NCBI RefSeq assembly: GCF_051903065.1 | Contig: NZ_CP178438.1 | Strand: one strand, 5' to 3' | Length of the DNA stretch: 64,000 bases | From: Escherichia coli | Lineage (GTDB): Bacteria > Pseudomonadota > Gammaproteobacteria > Enterobacterales > Enterobacteriaceae | Shown: piece after piece, positions 1,885 to 46,076 of the stretch | Numbering within the stretch: the stretch's first letter is position 1 | Layout: every line of letters begins with the position of its first letter | The notes under the pieces: generated by a model | Databases searched by the model: none | The model's input: the letters and a program-made list of their open reading frames with translations, nothing else | Told to the model about the DNA's origin: nothing | Position numbers and translations under genes: made by a program

Positions 1885-3564
1885 ATGAAACAGAAAATTA
1901 CGGATTACCTGGACGAAATCTACGGTGGAACATTTACCGCAACTCATTTACAGAAACTTGTAACGCGTCTTGAGAGTGCGAAACGATTAATTACACAGCG
2001 ACGTAAAAAACACTGGGATGAAAGTGACGTCGTGTTAATTACCTATGCCGATCAATTTCACAGTAATGGTTTAAAACCACTACCCACATTTAATCAGTTT
2101 TACCATCAATGGCTGCAATGCATTTTTTCACATGTTCATTTATTACCTTTTTACCCATGGTCATCTGATGATGGATTTTCGGTAATTGATTATCATCAGG
2201 TCGCCAGTGAAGCGGGGGAGTGGCAGGATATTCAGCAGCTCGGTGAATGCAGTCATTTAATGTTTGATTTTGTCTGCAACCATATGTCGGCAAAAAGTGA
2301 ATGGTTTAAAAACTATTTGCAACAGCTTCCGGGTTTTGAAGATTTTTTTATTGCGGTTGATCCGCAAACCGATCTCAGCGCTGTCACCCGTCCGCGTGCA
2401 TTACCGCTATTAACGCCGTTTCAAATGGATGATAATTCCACGCGCCATTTATGGACCACCTTTAGCGACGATCAAATTGACCTGAATTACCGTAGCCCTG
2501 ACGTGTTGCTGGCGATGGTGGATGTTTTGCTTTGTTACCTGGAAAAGGGCGCAGAGTATGTCCGCCTGGATGCCGTTGGCTTTATGTGGAAAGAGCCGGG
2601 AACAAGCTGCATCCATCTGGAAAAAACACATCTGATTATCAAACTGTTACGGTCGATTATTGATAACGTCGCGCCAGGCACAGTGATCATTACCGAGACC
2701 AATGTTCCGCATAAAGACAACATTGCTTACTTTGGCAACGGCGATGATGAAGCCCATATGGTGTATCAGTTCTCGTTGCCGCCGCTGGTGCTGCATGCGG
2801 TGCAAAAACAGAACGTCGAGGCGCTGTGCCAGTGGGCGCAAAGTCTGAGCTTGCCCTCCGGTAAAACGACCTGGTTTAACTTCCTCGCCTCTCACGATGG
2901 CATCGGGCTGAACCCACTGCGGGGCTTGTTACCAGAAAGCGAAATATTAGCGCTGGTCGAGGCATTACAGCAGGAAGGTGCATTAGTAAACTGGAAAAAT
3001 AATCCCGACGGTACGCGCAGTCCCTATGAAATAAATGTCACCTATATGGATGCGTTAAGCCGCCGCGAGAGTAGCGATGAAGAACGTTGCGCCAGGTTTA
3101 TCCTTGCCCATGCGATTTTGTTAAGTTTCCCCGGTGTGCCAGCGATATATATTCAAAGTATTCTGGGCTCGCGTAATGATTACGCAGGTGTCGAAAAACT
3201 CGGATATAACCGTGCGATTAACCGTAAAAAATATCACAGTGAAGAGATAACCCGAGAACTGAACGATGAAGCTACATTAAGGCATGCGGTATATCATGAG
3301 TTGTCGCGTTTAATTACACTTCGTCGCAGCCATAACGAGTTTCATCCGGATAATAATTTTACCATCGATACGGTTAATTCATCCGTAATGCGTATTCAAA
3401 GAAGTAACGCAGAGGGTAATTGTCTGACCGGATTGTTTAATGTCAGTAAAAATATTCAGCATGTAAATATTACTGGCCTGCACGGTCGGGATCTGATTAG
3501 TGAAGTTGATATATTGGGTAATAAAATAACGCTGCGCCCCTGGCAGGTTATGTGGATTAAATAA
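1885..3564 (+). CDS. ycjM: Glycoside phosphorylase (sucrose/glucosylglycerate phosphorylase family, GH13_18)
   Basis: 559-aa protein from Met at 1885 (MKQKITDYLDEIYGG…); first gene of the ycjM-V cluster. Confidence 0.85.
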   Translation: MKQKITDYLDEIYGGTFTATHLQKLVTRLESAKRLITQRRKKHWDESDVVLITYADQFHSNGLKPLPTFNQFYHQWLQCIFSHVHLLPFYPWSSDDGFSVIDYHQVASEAGEWQDIQQLGECSHLMFDFVCNHMSAKSEWFKNYLQQLPGFEDFFIAVDPQTDLSAVTRPRALPLLTPFQMDDNSTRHLWTTFSDDQIDLNYRSPDVLLAMVDVLLCYLEKGAEYVRLDAVGFMWKEPGTSCIHLEKTHLIIKLLRSIIDNVAPGTVIITETNVPHKDNIAYFGNGDDEAHMVYQFSLPPLVLHAVQKQNVEALCQWAQSLSLPSGKTTWFNFLASHDGIGLNPLRGLLPESEILALVEALQQEGALVNWKNNPDGTRSPYEINVTYMDALSRRESSDEERCARFILAHAILLSFPGVPAIYIQSILGSRNDYAGVEKLGYNRAINRKKYHSEEITRELNDEATLRHAVYHELSRLITLRRSHNEFHPDNNFTIDTVNSSVMRIQRSNAEGNCLTGLFNVSKNIQHVNITGLHGRDLISEVDILGNKITLRPWQVMWIK

Positions 3565-3577
3565 AAAGGAACATCTC

Positions 3578-4870
3578 ATGATTAAATCAAAAATCGTGCT
3601 GTTATCAGCACTGGTTTCCTGCGCCCTGATTTCAGGCTGTAAAGAAGAAAATAAAACCCATGTATCCATCGAATTTATGCATTCTTCGGTGGAGCAGGAG
3701 CGTCAGGCAGTTATCAGCAAATTGATTGCCCGTTTTGAAAAAGAAAACCCAGGTATCACCGTTAAACAAGTGCCCGTGGAAGAAGACGCTTATAACACCA
3801 AAGTCATCACCCTTTCACGTAGCGGCTCGCTGCCGGAAGTGATCGAAACCAGCCATGACTACGCCAAAGTTATGGATAAAGAGCAGCTTATCGATCGCAA
3901 AGCGGTTGCCACGGTCATCAGCAACGTTGGTGAAGACGCGTTTTACGATGGCGTACTGCGTATTGTGCGTACCGAAGATGGGAGTGCCTAGACCGGTGTT
4001 CCCGTCAGCGCCTGGATTGGCGGCATCTGGTATCGCAAAGATGTGCTGGCAAAAGCCGGGCTGGAGGAGCCGAAAAACTGGCAACAGCTGCTGGACGTTG
4101 CACAGAAACTGAATGACCCGGCGAATAAAAAATACGGTATTGCGCTGCCTACGGCAGAAAGCGTGCTGACGGAACAATCCTTCTCCCAGTTTGCGTTATC
4201 CAACCAGGCCAATGTCTTTAACTCTGCAGGCAAAATCACCCTTGATACACCAGAGATGATGCAAGCACTGACCTATTACCGCGACCTTGCCACCAACACC
4301 ATGCCGGGTTCTAACGATATCATGGAAGTGAAAGACGCCTTTATGAACGGCACCGCGCCGATGGCGATTTACTCCACCTATATCCTTCCGGCTGTGATTA
4401 AAGAAGGCGATCCGAAAAACGTCGGTTTCGTCGTGCCAACGGAGAAAAACTCTGCGGTCTACGGCATGTTGACCTCGCTGACCATTACCGCCGGGCAAAA
4501 GACCGAAGAAACGGAAGCAGCAGAAAAATTCGTCACCTTTATGGAGCAGGCGGACAACATTGCCGACTGGGTGATGATGTCGCCAGGCGCGGCACTGCCG
4601 GTGAACAAAGCGGTTGTCACTACCGCCACCTGGAAAGACAACGACGTGATCAAGGCGCTGGGTGAACTGCCGAATCAGTTAATTGGTGAACTGCCAAATA
4701 TTCAGGTTTTTGGCGCAGTAGGGGATAAAAACTTTACCCGCATGGGTGATGTGACGGGTTCTGGCGTGGTGAGTTCAATGGTGCATAACGTCACCGTGGG
4801 TAAAGCCGATCTCTCTACTACGCTGCAAGCGAGCCAGAAAAAACTGGATGAACTGATCGAACAGCACTAA
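3578..4870 (+). pseudogene. ycjN: Sugar ABC transporter periplasmic binding protein, interrupted by an in-frame TAG stop at 3989-3991
   Basis: ORFs 3578..3991 and 4043..4870 are in the same frame; translation across the stop is continuous (…RIVRTEDGSA*TGVPVSAWIGGIWYRKDVLAKAG…). N-terminus has a lipoprotein signal (LISGC). Confidence 0.8.
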
Positions 4871-4890
4871 ACCCAGGACAGGAATCCGCA

Positions 4891-5772
4891 ATGAACAGGC
4901 TTTTTTCAGGTCGTTCCGATATGCCCTTTGCGCTGCTGCTTCTCGCGCCCAGCTTATTACTGCTGGGCGGTCTGGTGGCGTGGCCGATGGTGTCGAATAT
5001 CGAAATCAGTTTTTTACGTCTGCCGCTCAATCCCAACATCGAGTCAACGTTTGTTGGGGTGAGTAACTATGTACGCATTCTCTCCGATCCCGGCTTCTGG
5101 CACTCGCTGTGGATGACGGTCTGGTATACGGCGCTGGTGGTGGCGGGCAGCACCGTGCTCGGGCTGGCGGTGGCGATGTTTTTCAACCGCGAGTTCCGCC
5201 TGCGCAAAACCGCGCGTTCGCTGGTGATCCTCTCCTACGTAACGCCGTCTATTTCGCTGGTGTTTGCCTGGAAATACATGTTCAACAACGGCTACGGCAT
5301 TGTGAACTACCTCGGCGTCGATCTTCTGCATCTCTATGAGCAGGCACCGCTGTGGTTCGATAATCCGAGCAGTAGCTTTGTGCTGGTGGTGCTGTTCGCC
5401 ATCTGGCGCTACTTCCCGTATGCCTTTATCTCGTTTCTGGCGATTTTGCAGACCATCGACAAATCGCTGTACGAAGCGGCAGAGATGGATGGCGCTAATG
5501 CCTGGCAACGGTTTCGCATCGTCACGCTGCCCGCAATTATGCCGGTCCTGGCGACGGTGGTGACCCTGCGCACCATCTGGATGTTCTACATGTTCGCTGA
5601 CGTTTATCTGCTGACGACGAAGGTCGATATTCTCGGCGTTTATCTCTACAAAACCGCCTTTGCCTTTAATGACTTAGGGAAAGCGGCGGCGATCTCGGTG
5701 GTGCTCTTCATCATTATTTTCGCTGTCATTCTGCTGACCAGAAAACGGGTGAACCTCAATGGCAACAAATAA
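4891..5772 (+). CDS. ycjO: Sugar ABC transporter permease (293 aa)
   Basis: Multi-TM protein with the MalF/G-like EAA motif region; operon context. Confidence 0.85.
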   Translation: MNRLFSGRSDMPFALLLLAPSLLLLGGLVAWPMVSNIEISFLRLPLNPNIESTFVGVSNYVRILSDPGFWHSLWMTVWYTALVVAGSTVLGLAVAMFFNREFRLRKTARSLVILSYVTPSISLVFAWKYMFNNGYGIVNYLGVDLLHLYEQAPLWFDNPSSSFVLVVLFAIWRYFPYAFISFLAILQTIDKSLYEAAEMDGANAWQRFRIVTLPAIMPVLATVVTLRTIWMFYMFADVYLLTTKVDILGVYLYKTAFAFNDLGKAAAISVVLFIIIFAVILLTRKRVNLNGNK

Positions 5773-6601
5773 ACGCACACTCAGTCGCATCGGTTTTTAC
5801 TGCGGGCTGGCGCTGTTTCTCATCATCACGCTGTTTCCGTTTTTTGTGATGCTGATGACCTCGTTCAAGAGCGCAAAAGAGGCGATCTCGCTGCATCCTA
5901 CGCTGCTGCCACAGCAGTGGACGCTGGAGCATTACGTCGACATTTTTAACCCGATGATTTTCCCGTTTGTCGACTACTTCCGTAACAGCATGGTGGTGTC
6001 GGTGGTTTCATCCGTGGTGGTGGTATTTCTCGGTATTCTCGGGGCTTACGCGCTTTCTCGCCTGCGCTTTAAAGGTCGGATGACCATCAACGCCAGCTTT
6101 TACACGGTGTACATGTTCTCCGGCATTTTGCTGGTGGTGCCGCTGTTCAAAATTATCACCGCACTTGGCATTTACGACACCGAGATGGCGCTGATCATTA
6201 CCATGGTGACGCAAACTCTGCCCACCGCCGTGTTTATGCTGAAAAGTTACTTCGACACCATCCCTGATGAGATCGAAGAAGCGGCGATGATGGATGGCCT
6301 CAACCGTCTGCAAATCATCTTCCGTATCACCGTGCCCCTGGCGATGTCCGGGCTGATATCGGTGTTCGTCTACTGCTTTATGGTGGCGTGGAACGACTAT
6401 CTGTTTGCGTCGATTTTCCTCTCCAGCGCCAGCAATTTCACCTTACCGGTGGGCCTGAACGCGCTGTTCAGTACGCCTGATTACATCTGGGGACGGATGA
6501 TGGCGGCCTCGCTGGTGACCGCATTGCCGGTGGTGATTATGTATGCGCTTTCGGAACGTTTTATTAAGAGTGGTTTGACCGCCGGTGGCGTGAAGGGCTA
6601 A
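5759..6601 (+). CDS. ycjP: Sugar ABC transporter permease (280 aa)
   Basis: Multi-TM permease with EAAMMDG motif; start overlaps ycjO stop. Confidence 0.85.
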   Translation: MATNKRTLSRIGFYCGLALFLIITLFPFFVMLMTSFKSAKEAISLHPTLLPQQWTLEHYVDIFNPMIFPFVDYFRNSMVVSVVSSVVVVFLGILGAYALSRLRFKGRMTINASFYTVYMFSGILLVVPLFKIITALGIYDTEMALIITMVTQTLPTAVFMLKSYFDTIPDEIEEAAMMDGLNRLQIIFRITVPLAMSGLISVFVYCFMVAWNDYLFASIFLSSASNFTLPVGLNALFSTPDYIWGRMMAASLVTALPVVIMYALSERFIKSGLTAGGVKG

Positions 6602-6631: not shown

Positions 6632-7684
6632 ATGAAAAAGTTAGTAGCCACAGCACCGCGCGTTGCTGCGCTGGTTGAGTATGAAGATCGGGCGATTTTA
6701 GCCAATGAAGTGAAGATCCGCGTGCGTTTCGGCGCACCGAAACACGGAACGGAAGTGGTCGACTTCCGCGCCGCCAGCCCGTTTATCGATGAAGACTTTA
6801 ACGGCGAGTGGCAGATGTTCACCCCGCGTCCGGCAGATGCGCCGCGCGGCATTGAGTTTGGCAAATTCCAGCTTGGCAACATGGTGGTTGGCGACATTAT
6901 CGAGTGCGGCAGCGACGTTACCGACTACGCGGTGGGCGACAGCGTATGCGGCTACGGCCCGCTCTCCGAGACGGTCATCATTAACGCAGTGAATAACTAC
7001 AAGCTGCGCAAAATGCCGCAAGGCAGCTCCTGGAAAAACGCCGTCTGTTACGACCCGGCGCAGTTTGCCATGAGCGGCGTGCGCGATGCCAACGTACGCG
7101 TAGGGGATTTTGTCGTGGTGGTAGGGCTTGGCGCGATCGGTCAAATTGCCATCCAACTGGCGAAACGCGCTGGCGCATCGGTGGTAATTGGCGTCGATCC
7201 TATCGCCCATCGCTGTGATATTGCCCGTCGCCACGGTGCTGATTTCTGCCTTAACCCCATTGGCACTGACGTAGGCAAAGAGATCAAAACGCTGACCGGC
7301 AAGCAGGGTGCCGATGTGATTATCGAAACCAGCGGTTACGCCGACGCGCTGCAATCGGCGCTGCGCGGTCTGGCCTACGGCGGCACCATCTCTTATGTCG
7401 CGTTTGCCAAACCATTTGCTGAAGGTTTTAACCTCGGACGCGAAGCGCATTTCAATAACGCCAAAATTGTTTTCTCCCGCGCGTGCAGCGAACCGAACCC
7501 GGATTATCCGCGCTGGAGCCGTAAGCGTATTGAAGAAACCTGCTGGGAACTGCTGATGAACGGTTATCTCAATTGCGAAGATTTAATCGACCCGGTAGTG
7601 ACCTTTGCCAACAGCCCGGAAAGCTACATGCAGTATGTCGATCAGCATCCGGAACAGAGCATCAAAATGGGCGTTACGTTTTAA
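6632..7684 (+). CDS. ycjQ: Zn-dependent alcohol/sugar dehydrogenase (350 aa)
   Basis: MDR-family features (GLGAIGQIAIQLAKRAGA Rossmann motif). Confidence 0.85.
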   Translation: MKKLVATAPRVAALVEYEDRAILANEVKIRVRFGAPKHGTEVVDFRAASPFIDEDFNGEWQMFTPRPADAPRGIEFGKFQLGNMVVGDIIECGSDVTDYAVGDSVCGYGPLSETVIINAVNNYKLRKMPQGSSWKNAVCYDPAQFAMSGVRDANVRVGDFVVVVGLGAIGQIAIQLAKRAGASVVIGVDPIAHRCDIARRHGADFCLNPIGTDVGKEIKTLTGKQGADVIIETSGYADALQSALRGLAYGGTISYVAFAKPFAEGFNLGREAHFNNAKIVFSRACSEPNPDYPRWSRKRIEETCWELLMNGYLNCEDLIDPVVTFANSPESYMQYVDQHPEQSIKMGVTF

Positions 7685-7701
7685 TTCAAAGGAATGAAAA
7701 A

Positions 7702-8490
7702 ATGAAAATAGGCACACAGAATCAGGCATTCTTTCCGGAAAATATCCGCGAGAAATTTCGTTATATCAAAGAGATGGGCTTCGATGGTTTTGAGATTGAC
7801 GGCAAACTGCTGGTCAACAACATCGAAGAAGTCAAAGCGGCGATCAAAGAAACCGGTTTACCAGTGACCACCGCCTGCGGCGGCTATGACGGCTGGATTG
7901 GTGACTTTATCGAAGAGCGTCGTCTTAATGGCTTAAAGCAGATCGAACGCATTCTCGAAGCGCTGGCAGAAGTGGGGGGTAAAGGTATCGTCGTTCCGGC
8001 AGCGTGGGGCATGTTTACCTTCCGCTTACCGCCGATGACCTCGCCGCGTAGCCTGGACGGCGACCGCAAAATGGTGAGTGATTCCCTGCGCGTACTGGAA
8101 CAGGTCGCCGCGCGTACCGGAACCGTGGTGTATCTCGAACCGTTAAACCGCTATCAGGATCATATGATCAACACCCTCGCCGATGCTCGTCGTTACATCG
8201 TCGAAAACAATCTTAAACATGTGCAGATTATCGGCGATTTCTATCACATGAACATCGAAGAAGATAACCTCGCGCAGGCGCTGCACGACAACCGTGACTT
8301 GCTCGGTCATGTGCATATTGCCGATAACCATCGTTACCAGCCGGGCAGCGGCACCCTCGATTTCCACGCGCTGTTTGAACAGCTGCGCGCCGATAACTAT
8401 CAGGGTTATGTGGTGTATGAAGGGCGTATCCGGGCAGAAGATCCTGCCCAGGCGTACCGTGATTCGTTGGCCTGGTTGCGTACCTGCTAA
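7702..8490 (+). CDS. ycjR: Sugar phosphate isomerase/epimerase (xylose-isomerase-like TIM barrel, 262 aa)
   Basis: Met at 7702 (MKIGTQNQAFFPENIREKFRYIKEMGFDGFEIDG…) preceded by RBS aaaggaatgaaaaa; the ORF-track start at 7573 lies inside ycjQ. Confidence 0.85.
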   Translation: MKIGTQNQAFFPENIREKFRYIKEMGFDGFEIDGKLLVNNIEEVKAAIKETGLPVTTACGGYDGWIGDFIEERRLNGLKQIERILEALAEVGGKGIVVPAAWGMFTFRLPPMTSPRSLDGDRKMVSDSLRVLEQVAARTGTVVYLEPLNRYQDHMINTLADARRYIVENNLKHVQIIGDFYHMNIEEDNLAQALHDNRDLLGHVHIADNHRYQPGSGTLDFHALFEQLRADNYQGYVVYEGRIRAEDPAQAYRDSLAWLRTC

Positions 8491-8499
8491 GAGGTCTTT

Positions 8500-9555
8500 G
8501 TGAAAAGTGCAATGACAAGCTCTCCGCTGCGTGTCGCGATAATAGGCGCAGGCCAGGTGGCGGATAAGGTTCATGCTTCGTACTACTGCACCCGCAACGA
8601 TCTGGAACTGGTGGCTGTCTGTGACAGCCGCCTTTCCCAGGCGCAGGCGCTGGCAGAAAAATACGGGAATGCATCCGTGTGGGACGATCCGCAGGCCATG
8701 CTGCTGGCGGTGAAACCTGATGTGGTTAGCGTCTGCTCACCTAACCGTTTTCATTACGAACATACCCTGATGGCGCTTGAAGCGGGCTGCCATGTGATGT
8801 GCGAAAAACCGCCCGCCATGACGCCAGAACAGGCGCGGGAAATGTGCGATACCGCGCGCAAACAGGGCAAGGTGCTGGCCTACGACTTTCACCATCGTTT
8901 TGCGCTCGATACGCAACAGCTGCGTGAACAGGTGACCAACGGCGTTTTGGGAGAGATTTACGTTACCACCGCCCGCGCCCTGCGTCGCTGCGGCGTTCCC
9001 GGCTGGGGTGTCTTTACCAATAAAGAACTGCAAGGTGGTGGCCCACTGATCGACATCGGCATTCATATGCTGGATGCTGCGATGTATGTGCTGGGCTTTC
9101 CGGCGGTGAAAAGCGTGAATGCGCATAGTTTTCAAAAGATCGGCACGCAAAAGAGCTGTGGTCAATTTGGCGAGTGGGATCCGGCAACTTACAGCGTCGA
9201 AGATTCGCTGTTTGGCACCATTGAATTTCATAACGGCGGCATTCTGTGGCTGGAAACGTCATTTGCACTCAACATCCGCGAACAGTCGATTATGAACGTC
9301 AGCTTTTGTGGTGATAAAGCCGGTGCGACGCTGTTTCCAGCACATATCTACACCGATAACAACGGTGAATTAATGACGCTGATGCAACGGGAAATGGCAG
9401 ACGACAACCGCCATTTGCGCAGCATGGAAGCCTTTATCAATCACGTACAGGGCAAGCCCGTGATGATAGCCGACGCCGAGCAGGGGTACATCATCCAGCA
9501 ACTGGTGGCGGCGTTATATCAATCCGCAGAAACAGGGACGCGTGTGGAATTATGA
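8500..9555 (+). CDS. ycjS: Gfo/Idh/MocA-family NAD-dependent oxidoreductase (351 aa)
   Basis: N-terminal Rossmann motif (LRVAIIGAGQVADKVH); probable GTG start. Confidence 0.85.
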   Translation: MKSAMTSSPLRVAIIGAGQVADKVHASYYCTRNDLELVAVCDSRLSQAQALAEKYGNASVWDDPQAMLLAVKPDVVSVCSPNRFHYEHTLMALEAGCHVMCEKPPAMTPEQAREMCDTARKQGKVLAYDFHHRFALDTQQLREQVTNGVLGEIYVTTARALRRCGVPGWGVFTNKELQGGGPLIDIGIHMLDAAMYVLGFPAVKSVNAHSFQKIGTQKSCGQFGEWDPATYSVEDSLFGTIEFHNGGILWLETSFALNIREQSIMNVSFCGDKAGATLFPAHIYTDNNGELMTLMQREMADDNRHLRSMEAFINHVQGKPVMIADAEQGYIIQQLVAALYQSAETGTRVEL

Positions 9556-11819
9556 CCAGGCCAGTAACGTTATCAGAACCCCATTTCAGCCAGCATACCC
9601 TGAACAAGTATGCATCGCTGATGGCGCAGGGGAACGGCTATCTTGGGCTTCGCGCCAGCCATGAAGAAGATTACACGCGCCAGACGCGAGGGATGTATCT
9701 GGCGGGGCTGTATCATCGGGCGGGAAAAGGTGAAATCAACGAACTGGTGAACCTGCCTGATATCTTGGGGATGGAGATTGCCATAAATGGTGAGGTTTTC
9801 TCGTTATCCCACGAAGCCTGGCAGCGTGAGCTTGACTTTGCCAGTGGCGAATTACGCCGCAACGTTGTCTGGCGTACCAGCAACGGCGCAGGTTACACCA
9901 TCGCCAGCCGTCGCTTTGTTTCGGCAGACCAACTGCCGCTCATTGCGCTGGAAATCACTATTACGCCACTGGACGCCGACGCGTCAGTGCTGATTTCAAC
10001 AGGTATCGACGCCACGCAAACCAACCACGGTCGCCAACATCTCGACGAAACCCAGGTGCGGGTGTTTGGTCAGCATCTGATGCAGGGGATCTACACCACC
10101 CAGGATGGACGCAGTGATGTGGCCATCAGCTGTTGCTGTAAGGTGAGCGGTGATGTGCAGCAATGCTATACCGCCAAAGAGCGCCGTTTGCTGCAACATA
10201 CCAGTGCGCAGCTTCATGCAGGCGAGACAGTGACGTTGCAAAAACTGGTGTGGATCGACTGGCGGGATGACAGGCAAGCCGTTTTAGACGAGTGGGGCAG
10301 CGCGTCGCTTCGCCAGCTTGAAATGTGCGCGCAGCAGAGTTACGACCAACTTCTTGCAGCATCAACAGAAAACTGGCGTCAATGGTGGCAGAAACGTCGT
10401 ATCACGGTAAATGGCGGCGATGCGCACGATCAGCAAGCGTTAGATTATGCGCTTTATCATCTGCGCATCATGACGCCGGCTCACGACGAGCGCAGCAGTA
10501 TTGCGGCAAAAGGCTTAACCGGCGAAGGCTACAAAGGCCACGTTTTCTGGGATACAGAAGTATTTTTGCTACCGTTTCATCTGTTTAGCGATCCGACGGT
10601 TGCCCGAAGTTTACTGCGTTATCGCTGGCACAACTTGCCTGGCGCGCAGGAGAAAGCGCGACGCAATGGCTGGCAGGGCGCGCTATTTCCGTGGGAAAGC
10701 GCGCGCAGCGGCGAAGAAGAGACGCCAGAATTTGCCGCCATTAACATTCGTACCGGGCTGCGGCAAAAAGTGGCCTCGGCGCAGGCGGAACATCATCTGG
10801 TGGCCGATATCGCCTGGGCGGTTATTCAATACTGGCAGACCACGGGGGATGAAAGTTTCATTGCTCATGAAGGCATGGCGCTACTTCTGGAAACTGCAAA
10901 GTTCTGGATTAGCCGCGCGGTGAGGGTTAACGACCGTCTGGAAATTCATGATGTTATTGGGCCAGACGAATATACCGAACATGTCAATAATAACGCCTTC
11001 ACCAGCTATATGGCGTATTACAACGTCCAGCAGGCGCTGAACATCGCCCGCCGGTTCGGCTGTAGCGACGTTGCGTTTATCCATCGCGCCGAAATGTTCC
11101 TCAAAGAGTTGTGGCTGTCAGAAATTCAGCCCGACGGCGTTTTGCCGCAGGATGATTCGTTTATGGCTAAGCCGGCGATTAATCTGGCGAAATACAAAGC
11201 GGCGGCGGGGAAGCAAACCATTCTGCTGGATTATTCACGCGCAGAAGTGAACGAGATGCAGATCCTCAAACAAGCTGATGTGGTGATGCTCAATTACATG
11301 CTGCCGGAGCAGTTCTCAGCGGCATCGTGTCTTGCCAATCTGCAATTTTATGAACCGCGCACTATTCACGACTCGTCATTAAGTAAAGCAATCCACGGCA
11401 TTGTTGCCGCACGCTGTGGCCTGCTGACCCAAAGTTATCAGTTCTGGCGCGAAGGGACTGAAATCGATCTTGGTGCTGATCCGCATAGTTGTGATGATGG
11501 TATCCATGCTGCCGCAACTGGCGCTATCTGGCTGGGGGCGATTCAGGGTTTTGCCGGGGTGAGCGTGCGTGACGGTGAATTGCATCTAAATCCGGCGTTA
11601 CCTGAGCAGTGGCAACAGTTGTCTTTCCCTCTGTTCTGGCAGGGCTGCGAATTACAGGTCACGCTCGACGCGCAGCGTATTGCGATTCGAACTTCTGCGC
11701 CCGTTTCACTGCGTTTGAACGGGCAGCTTATATCCGTGGCTGAAGAATCTGTTTTCTGTTTGGGTGATTTTATTTTGCCCTTCAATGGGACCGCTACCAC
11801 GCATCAGGAGGATGAATGA
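9552..11819 (+). CDS. ycjT: Kojibiose phosphorylase, GH65 (755 aa)
   Basis: Large GH65-like protein; start overlaps ycjS stop. Confidence 0.85.
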
Positions 11820-12475
11820 AACTGCAAGGGGTAATTTTCGATCTGGATGGTGTAATCACCGACACCGCGCATCTGCATTTCCAGGCGTGGCAGCAGATTG
11901 CCGCTGAAATTGGCATCAGCATTGATGCGCAGTTTAACGAATCCCTAAAAGGGATTAGCCGCGATGAGTCTCTGCGGCGCATTCTGCAATACGGGGGCAA
12001 AGAGGGCGACTTTAACTCGCAGGAGCGGGCGCAACTGGCGTATCGCAAAAATCTGCTCTACGTCCACTCACTGCGCGAACTGACGGTTAATGCCGTTCTG
12101 CCGGGGATCCGGCCTTTGCTGGCAGATCTCCGCGCACAGCAGATCCCGGTAGGGCTGGCTTCCGTCTCCCTGAATGCGCCGACGATTTTAGCGGCGCTGG
12201 AGCTGCGCGAGTTTTTCACCTTCTGCGCGGATGCTTCCCAACTTAAAAACTCGAAACCGGATCCGGAAATCTTTCTCGCTGCCTGTGCTGGGCTGGGCGT
12301 GCCGCCGCAGGCATGTATCGGCATTGAAGATGCGCAGGCGGGCATTGACGCCATTAACGCCAGCGGTATGCGCTCGGTGGGGATCGGCGCGGGCTTAACC
12401 GGGGCGCAATTACTGTTGCCTTCAACGGACTCCCTGACCTGGTCGCGGTTATCGGCCTTCTGGCAAAACGTATAG
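11816..12475 (+). CDS. ycjU: Beta-phosphoglucomutase, HAD superfamily (219 aa)
   Basis: HAD motif [11 protein letters not shown] at N-terminus; overlaps ycjT stop. Confidence 0.9.
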
Positions 12476-12488
12476 CAAAGGAATCAAC

Positions 12489-13571
12489 ATGGCTCAGCTT
12501 TCGTTACAACATATTCAAAAAATCTACGATAACCAGGTGCATGTGGTGAAGGACTTCAACCTGGAAATTGCCGATAAAGAGTTCATCGTATTTGTCGGCC
12601 CGTCGGGCTGCGGTAAATCGACCACCCTGCGCATGATTGCCGGGCTTGAGGAGATCAGCGGCGGCGATCTGTTGATCGACGGCAAACGAATGAATGACGT
12701 TCCAGCCAAAGCACGCAATATCGCGATGGTGTTCCAGAACTACGCGTTGTATCCGCATATGACGGTTTACGACAACATGGCGTTTGGCCTGAAGATGCAA
12801 AAAATCGCCAAAGAGGTGATTGATGAGCGGGTGAACTGGGCGGCGCAAATTCTCGGCCTGCGTGAGTACCTGAAACGCAAGCCGGGCGCGCTTTCCGGCG
12901 GGCAACGTCAGCGAGTGGCGCTCGGGCGGGCGATTGTACGCGAAGCGGGCGTGTTTTTAATGGATGAACCGCTCTCTAACCTTGATGCCAAGCTGCGCGT
13001 GCAAATGCGCGCAGAGATCAGCAAGCTGCATCAGAAACTGAACACCACCATGATCTACGTGACCCACGATCAGACCGAAGCGATGACCATGGCGACGCGG
13101 ATTGTGATTATGAAAGACGGGATTGTTCAGCAAGTGGGTGCGCCGAAAACCGTTTATAACCAACCCGCGAATATGTTTGTTGCCGGATTTATTGGATCAC
13201 CAGCGATGAATTTTATTCGCGGCACGATCGATGGCGATAAATTCGTTACGGAAACGCTTAAATTAACCATTCCCGAAGAGAAATTAGCGGTTCTGAAAAC
13301 ACAGGAAAGTTTGCATAAGCCCATCGTGATGGGAATGCGCCCGGAAGATATTCATCCGGACGCGCAAGAGGAAAATAATATTTCCGCCAAAATTAGCGTG
13401 GCAGAATTAACCGGTGCGGAATTTATGCTCTACACCACGGTTGGGGGGCACGAGTTAGTGGTCCGTGCTGGTGCGTTAAATGATTATCATGCAGGAGAAA
13501 ATATCACTATTCATTTTGATATGACTAAATGTCATTTCTTTGATGCAGAAACGGAAATAGCAATTCGCTAA
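12489..13571 (+). CDS. ycjV: ABC transporter ATP-binding protein, MalK-like (360 aa), apparently intact
   Basis: Walker A GPSGCGKST, signature LSGGQRQRV, Walker B VFLMDEP, plus a MalK-like C-terminal domain. Confidence 0.85.
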   Translation: MAQLSLQHIQKIYDNQVHVVKDFNLEIADKEFIVFVGPSGCGKSTTLRMIAGLEEISGGDLLIDGKRMNDVPAKARNIAMVFQNYALYPHMTVYDNMAFGLKMQKIAKEVIDERVNWAAQILGLREYLKRKPGALSGGQRQRVALGRAIVREAGVFLMDEPLSNLDAKLRVQMRAEISKLHQKLNTTMIYVTHDQTEAMTMATRIVIMKDGIVQQVGAPKTVYNQPANMFVAGFIGSPAMNFIRGTIDGDKFVTETLKLTIPEEKLAVLKTQESLHKPIVMGMRPEDIHPDAQEENNISAKISVAELTGAEFMLYTTVGGHELVVRAGALNDYHAGENITIHFDMTKCHFFDAETEIAIR

Positions 13572-13615: not shown

Positions 13616-14521
13616 ATGAAAAAGTTATTACCCTGTACCGCACTGGTGATGTGTGCGGGAATGGCCTGCGCACAGGCCGAGGAAAAGAACGACTGGCACT
13701 TTAATATCGGCGCGATGTACGAAATAGAAAACGTCGAGGGTTATGGCGAAGATATGGATGGGCTGGCGGAGCCTTCTGTCTATTTTAATGCCGCCAACGG
13801 GCCGTGGAGAATTTCTCTGGCCTATTATCAGGAAGGGCCGGTAGATTATAGCGCGGGTAAACGTGGAACGTGGTTTGATCGCCCGGAGCTGGAGGTGCAT
13901 TATCAGTTCCTCGAAAGCGATGATTTCAGTTTCGGTCTGACCGGCGGTTTCCGTAATTATGGTTATCACTACGTTGATGAACCGGGTAAAGACACGGCGA
14001 ATATGCAGCGCTGGAAAATCGCGCCAGACTGGGATGTGAAACTGACTGACGATCTACGTTTCAACGGTTGGTTGTCGATGTATAAATTTGCCAACGATTT
14101 GAACACGACCGGTTACGCTGATACCCGTGTCGAAACGGAAACAGGTCTGCAATATACCTTCAACGAAACGGTTGCTTTGCGAGTGAACTATTATCTCGAG
14201 CGCGGCTTCAATATGGACGACAGCCGCAATAACGGTGAGTTTTCCACGCAAGAAATTCGCGCCTATTTGCCGCTGACGCTCGGCAACCACTCGGTGACGC
14301 CGTATACGCGCATTGGGCTGGATCGCTGGAGTAACTGGGACTGGCAGGATGATATTGAACGTGAAGGCCATGATTTTAACCGTGTTGGTTTATTTTACGG
14401 TTATGATTTCCAGAATGGTCTTTCCATTTCGCTGGAATACGCGTTTGAGTGGCAGGATCACGACGAAGGCGACAGCGATAAATTCCATTATGCAGGTGTC
14501 GGCGTAAATTACTCGTTCTGA
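13616..14521 (+). CDS. ompG: Outer membrane porin OmpG (301 aa)
   Basis: Signal peptide MKKLLPCTALVMCAGMACA, beta-barrel sequence, C-terminal …VNYSF. Confidence 0.9.
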   Translation: MKKLLPCTALVMCAGMACAQAEEKNDWHFNIGAMYEIENVEGYGEDMDGLAEPSVYFNAANGPWRISLAYYQEGPVDYSAGKRGTWFDRPELEVHYQFLESDDFSFGLTGGFRNYGYHYVDEPGKDTANMQRWKIAPDWDVKLTDDLRFNGWLSMYKFANDLNTTGYADTRVETETGLQYTFNETVALRVNYYLERGFNMDDSRNNGEFSTQEIRAYLPLTLGNHSVTPYTRIGLDRWSNWDWQDDIEREGHDFNRVGLFYGYDFQNGLSISLEYAFEWQDHDEGDSDKFHYAGVGVNYSF

Positions 14522-14529
14522 TAATGGGC

Positions 14530-14594
14530 TAAATTGCCGGATGCGGCGCGAGTACTTTATCCGATCTATAAATGTAGGCCGGATAAGATGCGCC
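14530..14594. repeat. REP/BIME palindromic units downstream of ompG; the second unit is split by the IS at 14595 and resumes at 16028
   Basis: gccggatgcggcg… and gtaggccggataagatgcgcc | IS | gccagcatcgcatccggc; removing the IS and one GCC copy gives a palindrome gccggataagatgcgccagcatcgcatccggc. Confidence 0.75.
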
Positions 14595-15121
14595 TGAACT
14601 GCACCCCAAATGTTGGACATAATCTGACATCTGAAGGTGCAGTTTATGAAACATTCATTTGAAGTAAAACTTGCCGCTGTAAATCATTACCTGGCCGGTC
14701 ATGCAGGCATCATTTCTACGGCAAAACTCTTTCAACTTTCTCACACCAGCCTCTCACACTGGATTAATCTTTTTCTTCTTCACGGTCCTCAGGCACTGGA
14801 TTGCAGACACAAGCGTAGCTATTCTCCTGAAGATAAACTTTGCGTGGTTCTTTATGCTCTCGGGCATTCTGAGTCTCTACCCCGGGTAGCTGCCCGGTTT
14901 AACATTCCCAGCCACAACATGGTTAAAAACTGGATAAAAGGCTACCGCAAATCTGGTAATGAGGCCTTTATCAGGCGCAGGAAGGAGAAAAGCATGACCC
15001 GTTCTGATGATACCCATGAAAACGAGGCAAACATGACGCCGGAAGAGATGAAGAATGAGCTGCGTTATCTTCGCGCAGAAAATGCATATCTGAAAGCCAT
15101 GCAGGAGCATCTCCTGGAAAA

Positions 15122-16020
<899 letters not shown>

Positions 16021-16066
16021 TGTTCAGCCAGCATCGCATCCGGCATTCAGGCAAGGTCGCTGGTAT

Positions 16067-17065
16067 TTATTTCAGCGTCATATGCGTGGCAACGGTAATA
16101 TTTTGTGGTGACGGTTTTCCGGCAATTAAGCGGAATAATAACTCACAGCTTTGTTGACCTAACTCCTGCGTCGGAACATCGATGCCGCCCGGTGCAGGCG
16201 TTAAAATAAATGACAGCGTTTCATTGCTATAACCCACCACCGCTAACTGCTGCGGAATAGCAATGTTTTTCTCTGCCGCCGCACGATAAATGCTCATTAA
16301 TTTCAGGCTGTCAGTGGCAAACACTGCCTCAGGCAACGGTGACTGACTTAATAATTGCCGTGCTGCTTGCAGTGCTGTTTCATGGGTATAACCGCCATCA
16401 ACAATCCATTCATCACGCACTGCAATATTATGATCTTCCAGACTCTGCTTATAACCATTTACCCGATCCACTGAAACATGGACATCAAGCGGTGCATGCA
16501 GACAGGCAATATTTTGATGTCCACTTTCAATTAACGCATCGGTCAACGCAATGCTGTCACCAAAATTATCGGTATCGACAGAATAAACATGGGCATATTG
16601 ACCTTCAACTTTGCCAATCACCACCACAGGAATATCGTATTTATCAAGTTGCGCAAAAAATGACTCATCCGCTGGCGAACTTAGCATAATAATGCCTTTA
16701 ATCATTTTCTGCTTAATTTTGCTTTCACATTTTTGTAAGTCTTCTGCCGGGTTGTGCGACGTCTGCAATATCACGTCGAAACCTTCTTCTTCCGCTTTGG
16801 CGGTGATGGCATGTAGAACCTCTGAGAAAAACGGATTACCCGCCGTAGTTTTGGTTGAACGGGTAGAAATCACCATAATGGCATCAAAACCCGAAGAGGT
16901 CAGCGCGCGGGCCAGCTTGTTTGGCTGATACTGTAATTCTTCAATGGCCCGTAACACTTTTTCGCGCGCTTCCGGGGAGATATTAGTTTGCTTATTCAGC
17001 ACGCGTGATACGGTGGATTTTGATACGCCTGCAACCCTGGCAATATCATAAATAGTAGGGGACAT
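16067..17065 (-). CDS. ycjW: LacI-family transcriptional regulator (332 aa)
   Basis: N-terminal [27 protein letters not shown] and periplasmic-binding-like domain. Confidence 0.85.
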
Positions 17066-23827: not shown

Positions 23828-23991
23828 TATTGATGTGCAGATATTAGAATTGTCGTAATGTTATATACATGGCGTATTTTATTCTTACTGGTTCTACACA
23901 TGTTAATCGCATCTGATTGATCAGTTCACCTTAATAAGTTTAATAAATCGTACTGCACATAGTACAGTACGATGGTGGCTATATAATTGAT

Positions 23992-24642
23992 TTACATGAA
24001 GAATGGCTTATCGCCATCAGTCCCGGGTTGATTGATGCCTATATTCTCACCAATGTGTTTCTCAGGTTTATCGATGATATCTGTAATTAATGCTGCGACA
24101 CTCTTACGTGATACGATCGTACCTTTGAATGGTTCATTGCGTGAGGTAAGCTCATAATCAATAATATCTTCATCCGTCAGCCAGGCAGGGCGAAGAATTG
24201 TATAATCCAGTCCAGAAGCCTCAATTGCATCCGCAGCCCTGCGGAATGGTTTTAGGGGCTCACCAATAACTGCATTATTCCATTCGCCAAATTTTCCTGG
24301 AACTTCATCATAAATGCCGAGGGAAAGAACAAAGATCAGACGTTTAACATCACAGGCTTTCATCGCAGCGATCACTGAATTTGCCTGAATATCTAAATCT
24401 TCCCCCGTAAGGTTGGCATACACAATATCCTGTCCCTGCATGGCCTGCTTCAGTGCTGCATGATTCAGTACATCCCCCATAATAATCTGGCTATTAGTTG
24501 GATAGGGTTTGTGTATTTTTGCTGGCTGACGAGCAAATAAAGTTTGTTTAATGGTTTGTTTATCTGCCAGTTGATTAATCACATGGCGGGCTATCTGACC
24601 GCCAGCACCAAGAATGAGTACTTTTTTCATAATATTTCTCAT
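23992..24642 (-). CDS. NAD(P)-binding oxidoreductase (NmrA/atypical SDR-like, about 212-216 aa); appears intact here
   Basis: Rossmann motif VLILGAGGQIARHV near the N-terminus; open frame to stop. Confidence 0.7.
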   Translation of the reverse strand: MRNIMKKVLILGAGGQIARHVINQLADKQTIKQTLFARQPAKIHKPYPTNSQIIMGDVLNHAALKQAMQGQDIVYANLTGEDLDIQANSVIAAMKACDVKRLIFVLSLGIYDEVPGKFGEWNNAVIGEPLKPFRRAADAIEASGLDYTILRPAWLTDEDIIDYELTSRNEPFKGTIVSRKSVAALITDIIDKPEKHIGENIGINQPGTDGDKPFFM

Positions 24643-24647
24643 GAAAC

Positions 24648-25580
24648 TTATCCCAGATGGGTGTTGAAAAAAGGAATAACTTTTTCCAGCGCCTCCTGAA
24701 CTGCTTCCGGTTTGTCATACAGTTCATAATGTGAGAAATCGGGTAATGAAACTAACTGACGATCCTGCGAAACCATCGCCCGGCCATAGACTTCCAGTCC
24801 ATCACGATAAGCACCGAAGGCACCGACTTTTTCACCAACTACTACCATCACCGGCTGAGTCAGTAACACTTCAGTAAATGCGAAGGCATCCCAGGCCAGC
24901 GTTTTCTGTGCATGTGAGAACAACATTTTTGTCGCACCTCCCGGTTGTTGCCCGCGTGGTGTTTTATAGTAGTCAGTTGCTTCATAAACATCGCGTTCGG
25001 TCAGTCCATGGGCTTTTGCTGCATCCAGGCTGGCGGGAAGTAATTCGTTGATCTGTAATTCTCCACCACGAGCCTCTTTGGTTCGTTGCGACGCCATTGC
25101 ATTCAATGCGCCAATCGGATCGTAATTGCTGAAACCTTCCCGAAAAAGACGCCCGATATTAACACCCGTAATACTCACTACAGCTTTAATTCGTTTTTCT
25201 GTCAGCGCGGCATTAATGGCATAGCCCCTCCCCCCACACACACCCAGCACGCCAATGCGTTCAGCATCAACATATGGCAGAGTTACTGCATAATCGATAA
25301 CACGGCTAATATCCTCTACGCGCTGTGTCGGATCTTCTATCCAACGAGGCTCCCCACCAGATTCTCCCTGGAAATTGGCGTCATAAGCGAGAACGACATA
25401 GCCTTTTTCAGCCAATGCCTTGCCATAGATATTGCCAGACGTCTGCTCCTTACAACTGCCAAAAGGATGGACGCTGATAATCGCCGGATACTGTTTTGAC
25501 TCATCAAAATTTGGTGGAAACTGAATATTGGCAGCAATATGCCAGGCCATATCACTATTGCGGATTTGAATATGTTTCAT
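24648..25580 (-). CDS. Alpha/beta hydrolase, paralog of YcjY (310 aa)
   Basis: About half its residues are identical to the adjacent YcjY ORF by eye (shared YDAxxQGESGGEPR and IGxxGxCxGxGY blocks). Confidence 0.7.
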   Translation of the reverse strand: MKHIQIRNSDMAWHIAANIQFPPNFDESKQYPAIISVHPFGSCKEQTSGNIYGKALAEKGYVVLAYDANFQGESGGEPRWIEDPTQRVEDISRVIDYAVTLPYVDAERIGVLGVCGGRGYAINAALTEKRIKAVVSITGVNIGRLFREGFSNYDPIGALNAMASQRTKEARGGELQINELLPASLDAAKAHGLTERDVYEATDYYKTPRGQQPGGATKMLFSHAQKTLAWDAFAFTEVLLTQPVMVVVGEKVGAFGAYRDGLEVYGRAMVSQDRQLVSLPDFSHYELYDKPEAVQEALEKVIPFFNTHLG

Positions 25581-26512
25581 TACAGAGTTTCCTCAAAGAA
25601 CGGAGCTAATACTGAAATTGCTTCAGCCACATAGGCTTTGCCGTCATAAAGATCCATATGGTTTGCGCCTTCAACAATGTGATAGCGTTTATCCTGGCTT
25701 GATGCCCGATCGTACAGGTCGTCACTCATCCATTTGCTCCCTGCCTGGCTGCCCGCCACAATCTGCATCGGCTGAGTCAGGTACACTTCCGCCATATGGT
25801 AAGCATCATAGGTAATAATCTGGTTAAGGCTGCGCAAAGTAGCGTAACCCGGTGCTGTTGGATACTGCGCACGAGGGGTGTGGTAATACTCCCAGGCCTG
25901 ACGCAGTTCTTCGTTCGGCGCATCGGCCTCCTTCATTGGAGCCAGTGGCATAATGGCGTATTCTTCGCTGCTAATATCGCTGGTTCGGGCGTTTGAGCCA
26001 GCTTCAATGTGTGGCAGAGCATCAATAGATTTCACATTGTTTTCCCAACCATTGCGGAACATCGAACCAATATTGACCGCACTAACGGTACCGATGGCCT
26101 TGATGCGGCGATCCTGAATTGCAGCATTGGCTGTATATCCTGCACCGGCACAAATTCCCATCGCACCAATTCGGGTATTGTCGACATAAGAAAGCGTTGT
26201 CAGGTAATCAATCACGGCACTGATGTCTTCAGTACGAATGTATGGGTTTTCTAACTGACGCGGCTCGCCGCCACTTTCACCCTGATAAGATGCGTCATAA
26301 GCAATAGTGACAAATCCCTTTTCCGCCAGTTTTTCGGCATAGGTCCCGGCCGTTTGTTCTTTAACGCCCCCACCTGGGTGAGATACCACAATTGCCGGAT
26401 ATTGACGGGTTTCATCAAATTTTGGAGGAAAATAGATCACTGCAGACAAAGAGATGGTTGGATTATTGCTGTTAGTGAAGCTGACTTTATTATTCATCAT
26501 TCCGTTCCTCAT
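25580..26512 (-). CDS. ycjY: Alpha/beta hydrolase YcjY (about 306-310 aa)
   Basis: …MNNKVSFTNSNNPTISLSAVIYFPPKFDETRQY…; the stop of this gene overlaps the start of the downstream hydrolase (ATGA at 25580). Confidence 0.8.
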   Translation of the reverse strand: MRNGMMNNKVSFTNSNNPTISLSAVIYFPPKFDETRQYPAIVVSHPGGGVKEQTAGTYAEKLAEKGFVTIAYDASYQGESGGEPRQLENPYIRTEDISAVIDYLTTLSYVDNTRIGAMGICAGAGYTANAAIQDRRIKAIGTVSAVNIGSMFRNGWENNVKSIDALPHIEAGSNARTSDISSEEYAIMPLAPMKEADAPNEELRQAWEYYHTPRAQYPTAPGYATLRSLNQIITYDAYHMAEVYLTQPMQIVAGSQAGSKWMSDDLYDRASSQDKRYHIVEGANHMDLYDGKAYVAEAISVLAPFFEETL

Positions 26513-27537: not shown

Positions 27538-27782
27538 CACTACTTGCTGATACATTAATTTAATTCTTCTCTTAACGTATTCTCAGTTCCTTTCAACGTT
27601 TTGGTTATTTTTTATTCTTCGTACAATGGCGACAGATGCTGATTATGATACCGAAAACTGGTTTGAACGTGTGAAGCCCGAACGTAGTGTTCGGTGTTCT
27701 ATGTGCTTTGCCGCATTTTGGCGTCTATTATTTACACTAAATATGATTTAATATATTGATACATAAAACATTTTATGCTTCC

Positions 27783-35257: not shown

Positions 35258-36692
35258 TTATTTTAAAGGTGACGGTGTCACGTTTTTCGGGATAGGGCAG
35301 TGGTACGGTTGCGTGTCCGTTACTTGCTGATGCTCTTGTTGGCATTCTTGCAATAGCCCTGAATCAAGGAAGAGATTGACTGTGGTTGCTGCCATAGTTT
35401 TCGCCGCCAGCAGCATTCCTTTATGAGCAATAGATGTTCGCCCCTGGCTAACCAGTTGCCACGTATGTAGGGGTGTACCGACGGCAAAACAGGGGCTGAA
35501 ACACTGGGCAACAGGCAGTTTCCAACTGACGTCGCCGACATCAGTCGATGCCGCAAGCACGTTATCGGTGGCGGCATATGGAGCGACTTCATTCGCCAGT
35601 ACCGTTTCACGATGACGTAGTGCAAAAACCTTGCCGTTTTCGCCACCGGTTGCGGCGATATTATTCAGACTGTTTTGCCGATCGTTGGAGGTGAGCGTAG
35701 CCTGAATTTGTTTCGCAAAAGCCAGTTCTTCGGAGTTCCATTCCGGGGTACCAAAATGGGATAGGGCCTGGTACATGGCATTTTCTAAGGTGCGATTCGG
35801 GAGATAACTGGAACAGGCTTTGTCGAAGCGGCATTCAACCTTGGTTTCGGTCATCAATGCCGCACCTTCGGCGATTTTGGCGACCCGATCATAAATATGC
35901 TGCACGTCGGTCATTTCGGGGGCGCGGATAAGATAAAGCACTTCTGCCTGCGCCTGGACCACGTTGGGCGAGATCCCGCCGCTATTTGTGATGGCATAGT
36001 GTACGCGCGCTTTTTCAATAATATGTTCGTTGAGGAAGTTGGTGCCAGTGGTCATCAACGTTACGGCATCAAGGGCGCTGCGTCCCAAATGAGGGGAATT
36101 CGCGGCATGTGCTGCGATCCCTTTAAAGCGCCATGATGCCTGAATGTTTGCCAGCGTGCGGGTATTGAACATACCGGCAAAGGCTTCCGGGTGCCAGGTG
36201 AGTGCCGCATCCACATCATCAAATACCCCCTCGCGAACCATGAACGTTTTACCCGAGCCGCCTTCTTCGCCAGGACAACCATAAAAGCGCACCGTGCCGC
36301 CTTGCCCATATTGTTCCAGCCATTTCTTGACGGCTATTGCAGCGGCAAAGGCGGCGGTTCCCAGCAAATTGTGTCCGCAACCGTGACCATTTTCACCGGG
36401 CGTCACGGATGTAGGTTGCGCGCAACCTGCTTGCTGACTTAAACCTGCCAGGGCGTCATATTCTCCCAGCAGGGCGATAACCGGTTTGCCTTGACCAAAC
36501 GAAGCAATAAAGGCATTTGGGATATTGCCTACGGGTGAAGCCTGCAGATTCCAGCGCCGAAGCCAGATGCTCCGCTGACCAGAACTCTTCAAAACGTGTT
36601 TCTGGATGATCCCAGATTTGATCGGCAATATCGGTATAACGTTGGCGATCGGCTTCAATCGCATCGTCGATAAAACGATAGATTTCCTGCAT
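35258..36692 (-). pseudogene. abgB: p-Aminobenzoyl-glutamate hydrolase subunit B (M20 peptidase), frameshifted near 36533
   Basis: N-terminal 78-aa ORF (36456..36692, MQEIYRFIDDAIEADRQRYTDIADQIWDHPETRFEEFWSAEHLASALESAGFT…) switches frame into the 468-aa ORF (35258..36664, …VGNIPNAFIASFGQGKPVIALLGEYD…). Confidence 0.75.
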
Positions 36693-44449: not shown

Positions 44450-45385
44450 TTATTTCACTTCAACCACATTCAGCCGTAACTCATCCAACTGATTTTCATC
44501 TTCTTCTGGCTGCCAGCCCGCCGGTTGTAGTGGGATCTCTTCGCGATCAAACGCCAGATCACCCCCGTTAACCACTTCAGAACCGTGGGTGATGCCTTTG
44601 AAATCGAACAGGTTGGTATCGCACAGATGCGACGGCACCACATTCTGCATCGCGCTGAACATCGTCTCGATACGCCCTGGATAACGTTTATCCCAGTCAC
44701 GCAACATGTCAGCAATCACCTGACGTTGCAGGTTAGGCTGTGAACCGCACAGGTTGCACGGAATAATCGGGAACGCTTTTGCATCGGCAAATCGCTGAAT
44801 ATCTTTCTCGCGGCAGTAGGCCAGCGGACGAATAACGATATGTTTGCCATCATCGCTCATCAGTTTCGGAGGCATACCTTTCATCTTGCCGCCGTAGAAC
44901 ATATTTAAGAACAACGTTTGCAGGATATCGTCACGATGGTGGCCCAACGCGATCTTCGTCGCCCCCAGTTCCGTTGCGGTGCGATAAAGGATACCGCGAC
45001 GTAGCCGAGAACACAGTGAGCAAGTGGTTTTGCCCTCTGGAATCTTCTCTTTCACGATACCGTAAGTGTTCTCTTCAACAATCTTGTACTCAACGCCCAG
45101 CTTTTCAAGATACTCGGGCAGAACGTGTTCCGGGAAGCCCGGTTGCTTTTGATCGAGGTTAACAGCCACCAGCGAAAAATTGATTGGCGCGCTTTGCTGC
45201 AAATTGCGCAGAATCTCCAGCATGGTATAGCTGTCTTTACCCCCGGAGAGGCAAACCATGATGCGATCGCCTTCTTCAATCATATTGAAGTCAGCAATGG
45301 CTTCGCCCACGTTACGACGCAGGCGTTTTTGTAATTTGTTCAGATTGTATTGTTCTTTCTTGCTAATTTCTTGATTTTGCGACAT
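44450..45385 (-). CDS. ttcA: tRNA 2-thiocytidine(32) synthetase TtcA (311 aa)
   Basis: PP-loop motif (SGGKDS) and CxxC pairs. Confidence 0.9.
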
Positions 45386-45526
45386 TTAAAAGCGACTCAA
45401 TTCGTTATATGGCATCAGAAGAGTATGCGTCATGCCGGAACGCCCAGCATAAGAAATCTGATATAAAAACTGTGGCGTGTATGGTACGGATTAGAGGGGA
45501 AAATGTCAGCACATTTGCGAAATGAA

Positions 45527-45555
45527 TCAAAAAGCCCGCAGCAATGTGCGGGCGT
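45527..45555 (-). terminator. Rho-independent terminator of uspF
   Basis: Minus-strand gcccgcacattgctgcgggc followed by TTTTT just downstream of the uspF stop. Confidence 0.6.
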
Positions 45556-45560
45556 TAGTG

Positions 45561-46076
<516 letters not shown>

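Follow-up and report, generated by a model that had tools for sequence, protein, structure and literature searches.

A nonsense allele of ycjN, probably inactivating, in a sub-lineage of one Escherichia coli clone

YcjW represses the Escherichia coli operon ycjMNOPQRSTUV-ompG, with binding sites that lie upstream of ycjM and between ycjT and ycjU (PMC6599011). YcjN is the substrate-binding lipoprotein (CUT1 family, cluster D-I) of the ABC importer YcjNOPV. Lipidation of K-12 YcjN has been demonstrated, and the crystal structure (PDB 8VQK) comprises N- and C-terminal lobes, each made of non-contiguous segments; CTD1 corresponds to residues 145-298 and 359-383, and CTD2 to residues 384-430 (PMC11543891). 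A ligand search by nanoDSF found none (PMC11543891). YcjN-dependent uptake of ethidium bromide is reported by one paper (PMC13053599). In K-12 MG1655, the importer is hit in its ATPase gene: a 1-nt frameshift near codon 322 splits ycjV into ycjV' and ymjB, the rest of the cluster being intact. In a widespread K-12-like haplotype, it is ycjN that is interrupted, by a TGG to TAG change at codon 168 that is fixed there (W168*; 190/5426 complete RefSeq genomes, i.e. 3.5%, and 4824 index blocks; carriers: Sanji (NZ_CP011061.1), M217, AR_0011 and contigs L030-L033). In 23CRST027 (NZ_AP045789.1) and 23CRST031 (NZ_AP045800.1), complete RefSeq genomes of Ecuadorian isolates from human faeces, ycjN is flagged by PGAP as a pseudogene ('internal stop').

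The locus described here carries the allele of these two genomes. The window (the whole stretch of E. coli DNA that was analysed, 64 kb) includes a ycjN pseudogene at 3578..4870 on the plus strand, which is 100% identical to ycjN of 23CRST027 and 23CRST031, premature TAG included. This allele (W138*) is thus already known, being annotated as 'internal stop' in RefSeq. Over the 64 kb, the window differs from 23CRST027 by 4 SNPs (15162, 28360, 51378 and 60949) and one 11-bp deletion (36533/36534), and it represents a third isolate or assembly beside these two. Like W168*, W138* is a Trp to amber change in the same gene with the same expected consequence; it differs from W168* in its codon and its lineage and is much rarer (2/5426 genomes versus 190/5426). 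The former count comes from a 55-mer query with position 3990 at its centre, which forces each 28-base megablast seed to span the variant, and is valid for this haplotype only, since the TGG control 55-mer reached only 45 genomes. Carrier counting was therefore moved to exact look-ups of the shortened products.

The premature amber stop (codon 138, 3989..3991) is in frame with the ATG at 3578, from which it is separated by 411 nt, i.e. 137 codons. Read directly, the sequence around it is GGG AGT GCC TAG ACC GGT. The translation of 3578-4870 (...TEDGSA*TGVPVSAW...) includes this single internal stop and ends at the normal stop codon at 4868-4870. Two entries of the ORF list share this frame: 3578..3991, of 137 aa, and 4043..4870, of 275 aa when counted from the first GTG. 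The TAG splits a gene of 430 codons and is not a chance ORF boundary. The residual N-terminal ORF (3578..3988, plus strand, 137 codons) still encodes the signal peptide and, of the N-terminal domain, its first segment. A lipobox (LISGC) is present, with Cys21 encoded at 3638-3640, and residues 1-27, lipobox included, are the same as in K-12. The C-terminal remnant ORF (4043..4870, plus strand) has 275 codons counted from the in-frame GTG.

Sequence, synteny and signal peptide identify the gene as the orthologue of ycjN. It shares 95.5% DNA identity with K-12 MG1655 b1310, and the proteins have 6 amino-acid differences besides the stop. It lies between ycjM and ycjO in pspE-ycjMNOPQRSTUV-ompG-ycjW, the K-12 gene order being kept. 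A match to ycjN was found in 5001/5426 complete RefSeq E. coli genomes and covers at least 80% of the length in 4991/5426, a count that scores length coverage and not intactness; 425/5426 have no match. All the matches listed are annotated as ycjN, ABC transporter substrate-binding protein. Among genomes in which ycjN is intact, the nearest is ECNB21-M121 (NZ_CP083585.1), which differs from the window by 6 SNPs over the 16.9 kb compared. Its intact YcjN aligns with YcjN of PDB 8VQK over residues 1-430 (E=1.3e-279). The ancestral codon 138 is assigned as TGG, and the change as TGG to TAG through G3990A, because ycjN of ECNB21-M121 differs from that of the window only by a G at 3990 and because the K-12 codon is likewise TGG (Trp138). 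As in a unitary pseudogene, an in-frame stop interrupts a conserved ORF of which an intact allele is found in the closest relative. The frame for both lobes is interrupted, so the gene is to be classed as a pseudogene and not as a functional member of its family. The first-pass annotation, which was made from the sequence alone, had described a ycjN with a single in-frame TAG at 3989-3991 between two ORFs of the same frame, and had given Trp for the K-12 protein; coordinates, translation and Trp138 of both K-12 and ECNB21-M121 agree with it.

It had also raised the alternative of a sequencing error. If the assembly were wrong, the true base at 3990 would be G and ycjN would be intact; a single base that differs from the nearest relative is the pattern that an error would also give. 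Against this, the complete genomes 23CRST027 and 23CRST031, which were assembled independently, have A at 3990, and the exact 137-aa product of this haplotype was found on 49 contigs (NCBI, ENA and Logan assemblies of independent runs) that differ from one another elsewhere. The intact protein of the same haplotype was found on 104 contigs by exact look-up. Carriers of the TAG allele include GCA_949766195.1 and the Logan assemblies of ERR3317511 and SRR31115477. The three TAG contigs that were fetched differ from the window and among themselves at other sites: position 6021 is the ancestral C in L016 (GCA_949766195.1) and L017, as in the intact relative, and T in L018 and in the window. Since carriers differ elsewhere, the allele has been inherited through the diversification of the clone. 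W138* is heritable, is present in several independent isolates and is no artefact. These many independent assemblies exclude an error as the source of the allele itself, and for the window it is extremely improbable.

A further alternative is that a suppressor tRNA of the supE/supF type decodes the amber codon, full-length YcjN still being made. Such alleles do occur in E. coli. They were sought as the K-12 sequences of tRNAs that are one anticodon change from amber (glnV/X, tyrT/V, tyrU, serU, trpT, leuX) or ochre (glnU/W, tyr and lys tRNAs); the scan covers single-base anticodon mutants of these named genes. The query was a concatenation of 55-mers centred on the mutated base, which the 28-base seeds must include. 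Matches were found in 161/5426 complete genomes; those listed are mostly laboratory K-12 derivatives with a glnV (supE-type) allele (DH5alpha, C600, DH1, J53 and others), which act as a positive control. When the glnV segment is left out, 3 unrelated genomes of 5426 remain, neither 23CRST027 nor 23CRST031 being among them. Accordingly, no amber or ochre anticodon allele of tyrT/V/U, serU, trpT, leuX, glnU/W or lys tRNA genes was found by the mutated-anticodon scan in 23CRST027 or 23CRST031. Direct reading in 23CRST027 gave wild-type anticodons for glnX, glnV, glnW and glnU (CUG, CUG, UUG and UUG) and for serU (CGA), tyrT/V, tyrU, leuX and trpT being covered by the scan. The 64-kb window itself has no tRNA gene. 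The suppressor raised as an alternative in the first-pass annotation was thus looked for by both approaches in a near-identical complete genome, and none was found among the genes covered. The window isolate does differ from 23CRST027 (4 SNPs and the 11-bp deletion over 64 kb). Suppression is not supported by these results from the near-identical genome, and the probability of a suppressor elsewhere in the genome of the window isolate is put as very low, on a level with that of an error.

W138* is thus best read as a nonsense allele. Translation would end after residue 137, and the product would comprise the lipoprotein signal peptide plus the initial segment of the N-lobe. According to the 8VQK boundaries, a stop at 138 removes the hinge crossings, the whole C-lobe (residue 145 onward) and the second N-lobe segment. 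A fragment of 137 residues would be unable to form the ligand cleft, to close on a ligand or to dock on YcjOP. W138* is therefore predicted to be a loss-of-function allele of ycjN, because two thirds of the fold is removed. The C-terminal remnant (4043..4870), which lacks a signal peptide, probably gives no functional product. It is annotated by gene callers on 31 contigs. Reinitiation at the GTG at 4043 was considered and set aside: inspection of the sequence upstream revealed no Shine-Dalgarno-like motif, and the product would have no export signal.

The other genes of the cluster are intact. ycjM (1885..3564), the first gene of the operon, encodes a glucosylglycerate phosphorylase. ycjO and ycjP (4891..6601) encode the ABC permeases. 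ycjQ, ycjR, ycjS, ycjT and ycjU/pgmB (6632..12475) encode guloside/glucoside dehydrogenases, an epimerase, kojibiose phosphorylase and beta-phosphoglucomutase. ycjV (12489..13571), which encodes the ABC ATPase, is an intact ORF of 360 codons. ompG (13616..14521), which encodes a porin, is the last gene of the operon. All these genes are on the plus strand; ycjW (16067..17065), which encodes the LacI-family repressor of the operon, is on the minus strand. The neighbours of ycjN are those of K-12: pspE-ycjM upstream, ycjOPQRSTU(pgmB)V-ompG downstream, and a convergent ycjW. From ycjM to ompG, all genes except ycjN (and ycjV, which is frameshifted in K-12) have K-12 lengths and zero internal stops. 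In ycjP, a C to T change at 6021 leads to A88V, a change that arose within the TAG lineage: the window, 23CRST027, 23CRST031 and L018 have it, and L016, L017 and the intact relative do not. In L016 (GCA_949766195.1), the ycjN remnant has a 1-nt deletion equivalent to window position 4707. This may be continued decay once ycjN had been hit, or simply noise.

A point lesion affects the YcjNOPV importer both in the window and in K-12 MG1655, the rest of the cluster being intact in each; the lesion is a nonsense codon in the binding-protein gene in the former and a 1-nt frameshift in the ATPase gene in the latter. The first-pass annotation had taken ycjV to be a pseudogene in K-12, had described the remaining ycjM-V cluster as apparently intact here, ycjV included, and had concluded that this lineage would have lost the transporter through another gene. 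The split of ycjV into ycjV' and ymjB bears out the first statement, and gene lengths and reading frames the second. The gene lesions agree with the third, whose functional step would follow from them. A paralogue might replace the ATPase; the replacement of a specific binding protein seems less likely. In carriers of W138*, YcjNOPV would lack its binding protein, and the permeases, the ATPase, the catabolic enzymes, OmpG and YcjW would be kept. About 900 nt of mRNA upstream of ycjO would be untranslated, which might cause some Rho-dependent polarity from ycjO onward. The base composition of 3992-4890 includes one modest C>G stretch near 4175 and gives no clear Rho signal. The lineage is probably unable to use the YcjNOPV route for its sugar, although enzymes acting on kojibiose, glucosylglycerate and guloside are kept.

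The mutated base lies in a former Dcm site (3987..3991; ancestral CCTGG, now CCTAG). In this haplotype Ala137-Trp138 is encoded by GCC TGG, and G3990 is opposite the inner, methylatable C of the bottom-strand CCAGG. In 23CRST027, dcm (1419 nt) and vsr are annotated and carry no pseudogene flag. Deamination of 5-methylcytosine at this site, escaping repair by Vsr, is a plausible cause of G3990A because the base opposite the mutated G is the inner C of the ancestral Dcm site. Amber hotspots of lacI reportedly arise by this mechanism at Dcm sites, with CCAGG changed to CTAGG (Coulondre, Miller, Farabaugh and Gilbert, 1978). The likeness includes the inner C:G pair of CCWGG, the G:C to A:T change and the TAG product, dcm and vsr being present in 23CRST027. 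In the window, unlike lacI, the 5-methylcytosine would be on the non-coding strand, and it is a Trp codon, not a Gln codon, that becomes amber; moreover, this is a single natural event. Against this origin, spontaneous changes are most often G:C to A:T whatever the site, and stops at codon 138 are also found in lineages with GCATGG, which is not a Dcm site. The contig counts of truncated products (see below) reveal no excess of nonsense alleles at Dcm-site positions. An origin by deamination is given an even chance; if it is right, W138* would be a clean natural example of a Trp to amber change at the methylatable position of a Dcm site.

Products of 137 aa were also found on 58 contigs in a K-12-like (N28/G120) haplotype and on 29 contigs in an H28/G120 haplotype, besides the 49 contigs of the window's haplotype. 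Among the further lesions at codon 138, two K-12-like backgrounds have TGA and TAG, respectively, a 1-nt deletion creates TGA, and a distinct third haplotype again has TGA. YcjN is thus cut off at residue 137 by at least four more independent lesions. Codon 138 could accordingly be a specific mutational hotspot yielding repeated stops, as the three amino-acid haplotypes, the diversity of lesions (TAG, TGA and 1-nt deletion) and the Dcm site of the window lineage would suggest. All the further backgrounds have GCATGG, however, and codon 138 is unexceptional when compared with controls. The latter are the truncated products of ten other transition-accessible nonsense changes in YcjN, sought by exact look-up. 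All ten were found: Q40 (41 contigs), Q43 (188), Q64 (370), Q103 (57), W146 (60), W151 (104), W168 (at least 1000), Q169 (29), Q170 (45) and Q176 (27); some may stem from genes called incompletely where a contig ends, an interior position having been verified for the 137-aa and 167-aa products. A hotspot at codon 138 is very unlikely and was dropped, control truncations having similar or higher counts.

W138* is an ordinary pseudogene, with nothing outside known biology. It is very probably a real, vertically inherited loss-of-function allele of ycjN, made by a single transition in a sub-lineage of one E. coli clone: one G:C to A:T change at 3990 would have turned Trp138 into amber. It would be one of many sporadic knock-outs of ycjN, which fits weak selection on the transporter. 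Nonsense alleles of ycjN are common in public E. coli data, and the transporter appears weakly constrained, which is relevant to the assignment of its physiological role. The loss of YcjN might instead be adaptive and positively selected, for instance by blocking harmful uptake or saving a cost. Recurrent loss (the at least four independent lesions ending at residue 137), the abundance of W168* (190/5426 genomes, 4824 index blocks), the 425 complete genomes with no ycjN match, the ycjV frameshift of K-12 and YcjN-dependent ethidium bromide uptake (PMC13053599) would be in keeping with it. Nevertheless, the finding of 10/10 control nonsense positions is expected from very deep sampling of a weakly constrained gene without selection, a full-length ycjN match is kept in most E. 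coli genomes, and contig counts mirror clonal expansion and not the number of events. Adaptive loss is thus unlikely. A stronger proposal, recurrent positive selection for the inactivation of YcjN in human- and animal-associated E. coli, with an importer that admits a harmful compound or is costly, is slightly less probable still. If it were true, neutral decay would give way to convergent, adaptive loss as the reading of W138*, W168*, the ycjV frameshift of K-12 and the many other truncations.

Other features of the window were recorded. Between ompG and ycjW, an IS1397 (IS3 family, 1433 bp; 14594-16026) has inserted into a REP-like palindrome (GCCGGATAAGATGCGC|...|AGCATCGCATCCGGC). This insertion is not in K-12 and is in ECNB21-M121, 23CRST027 and 23CRST031; since it is shared with ECNB21-M121, in which ycjN is intact, it is older than the ycjN nonsense mutation. 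Position 15162, inside the IS1397 transposase gene, is A in the window versus G in these three genomes. abgB (minus strand, about 35258-36692), which encodes subunit B of p-aminobenzoyl-glutamate hydrolase, lacks at 36533/36534 the 11 bp (TTGCGGGTAAC) that 23CRST027 has. According to the ORF list, this deletion frameshifts the gene into a 78-aa N-terminal piece and a 468-aa remainder. The 111-bp junction exceeds 91% identity, the value expected with 11 extra bases, in 0/4199 matching complete genomes, and the deletion is apparently unshared. It is either a second, private pseudogene of the window isolate or an assembly error.

A large ydbA-like autotransporter gene (about 56986-63627; pectate-lyase-fold passenger and beta-barrel) is split by an IS1A (transposase at about 60754-61451); both halves are annotated by PGAP as partial pseudogenes in 23CRST027. 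The passenger includes, at 57283-57642, imperfect tandem repeats with a unit of about 30 bp. In the ttcA-uspF region (about 44450-46000), the 23CRST027 annotation gives ttcA, then uspF and ompN, and no prophage gene between them; in K-12 the Rac prophage adjoins ttcA. Between mpaA and pgrR (about 23990-26500), an intact SDR oxidoreductase gene and two alpha/beta hydrolase genes are found, where K-12 has the small ORFs ymjC and ymjD and ycjY. A 75-bp fragment of queH lies at 27635-27709, between pgrR and mppA.
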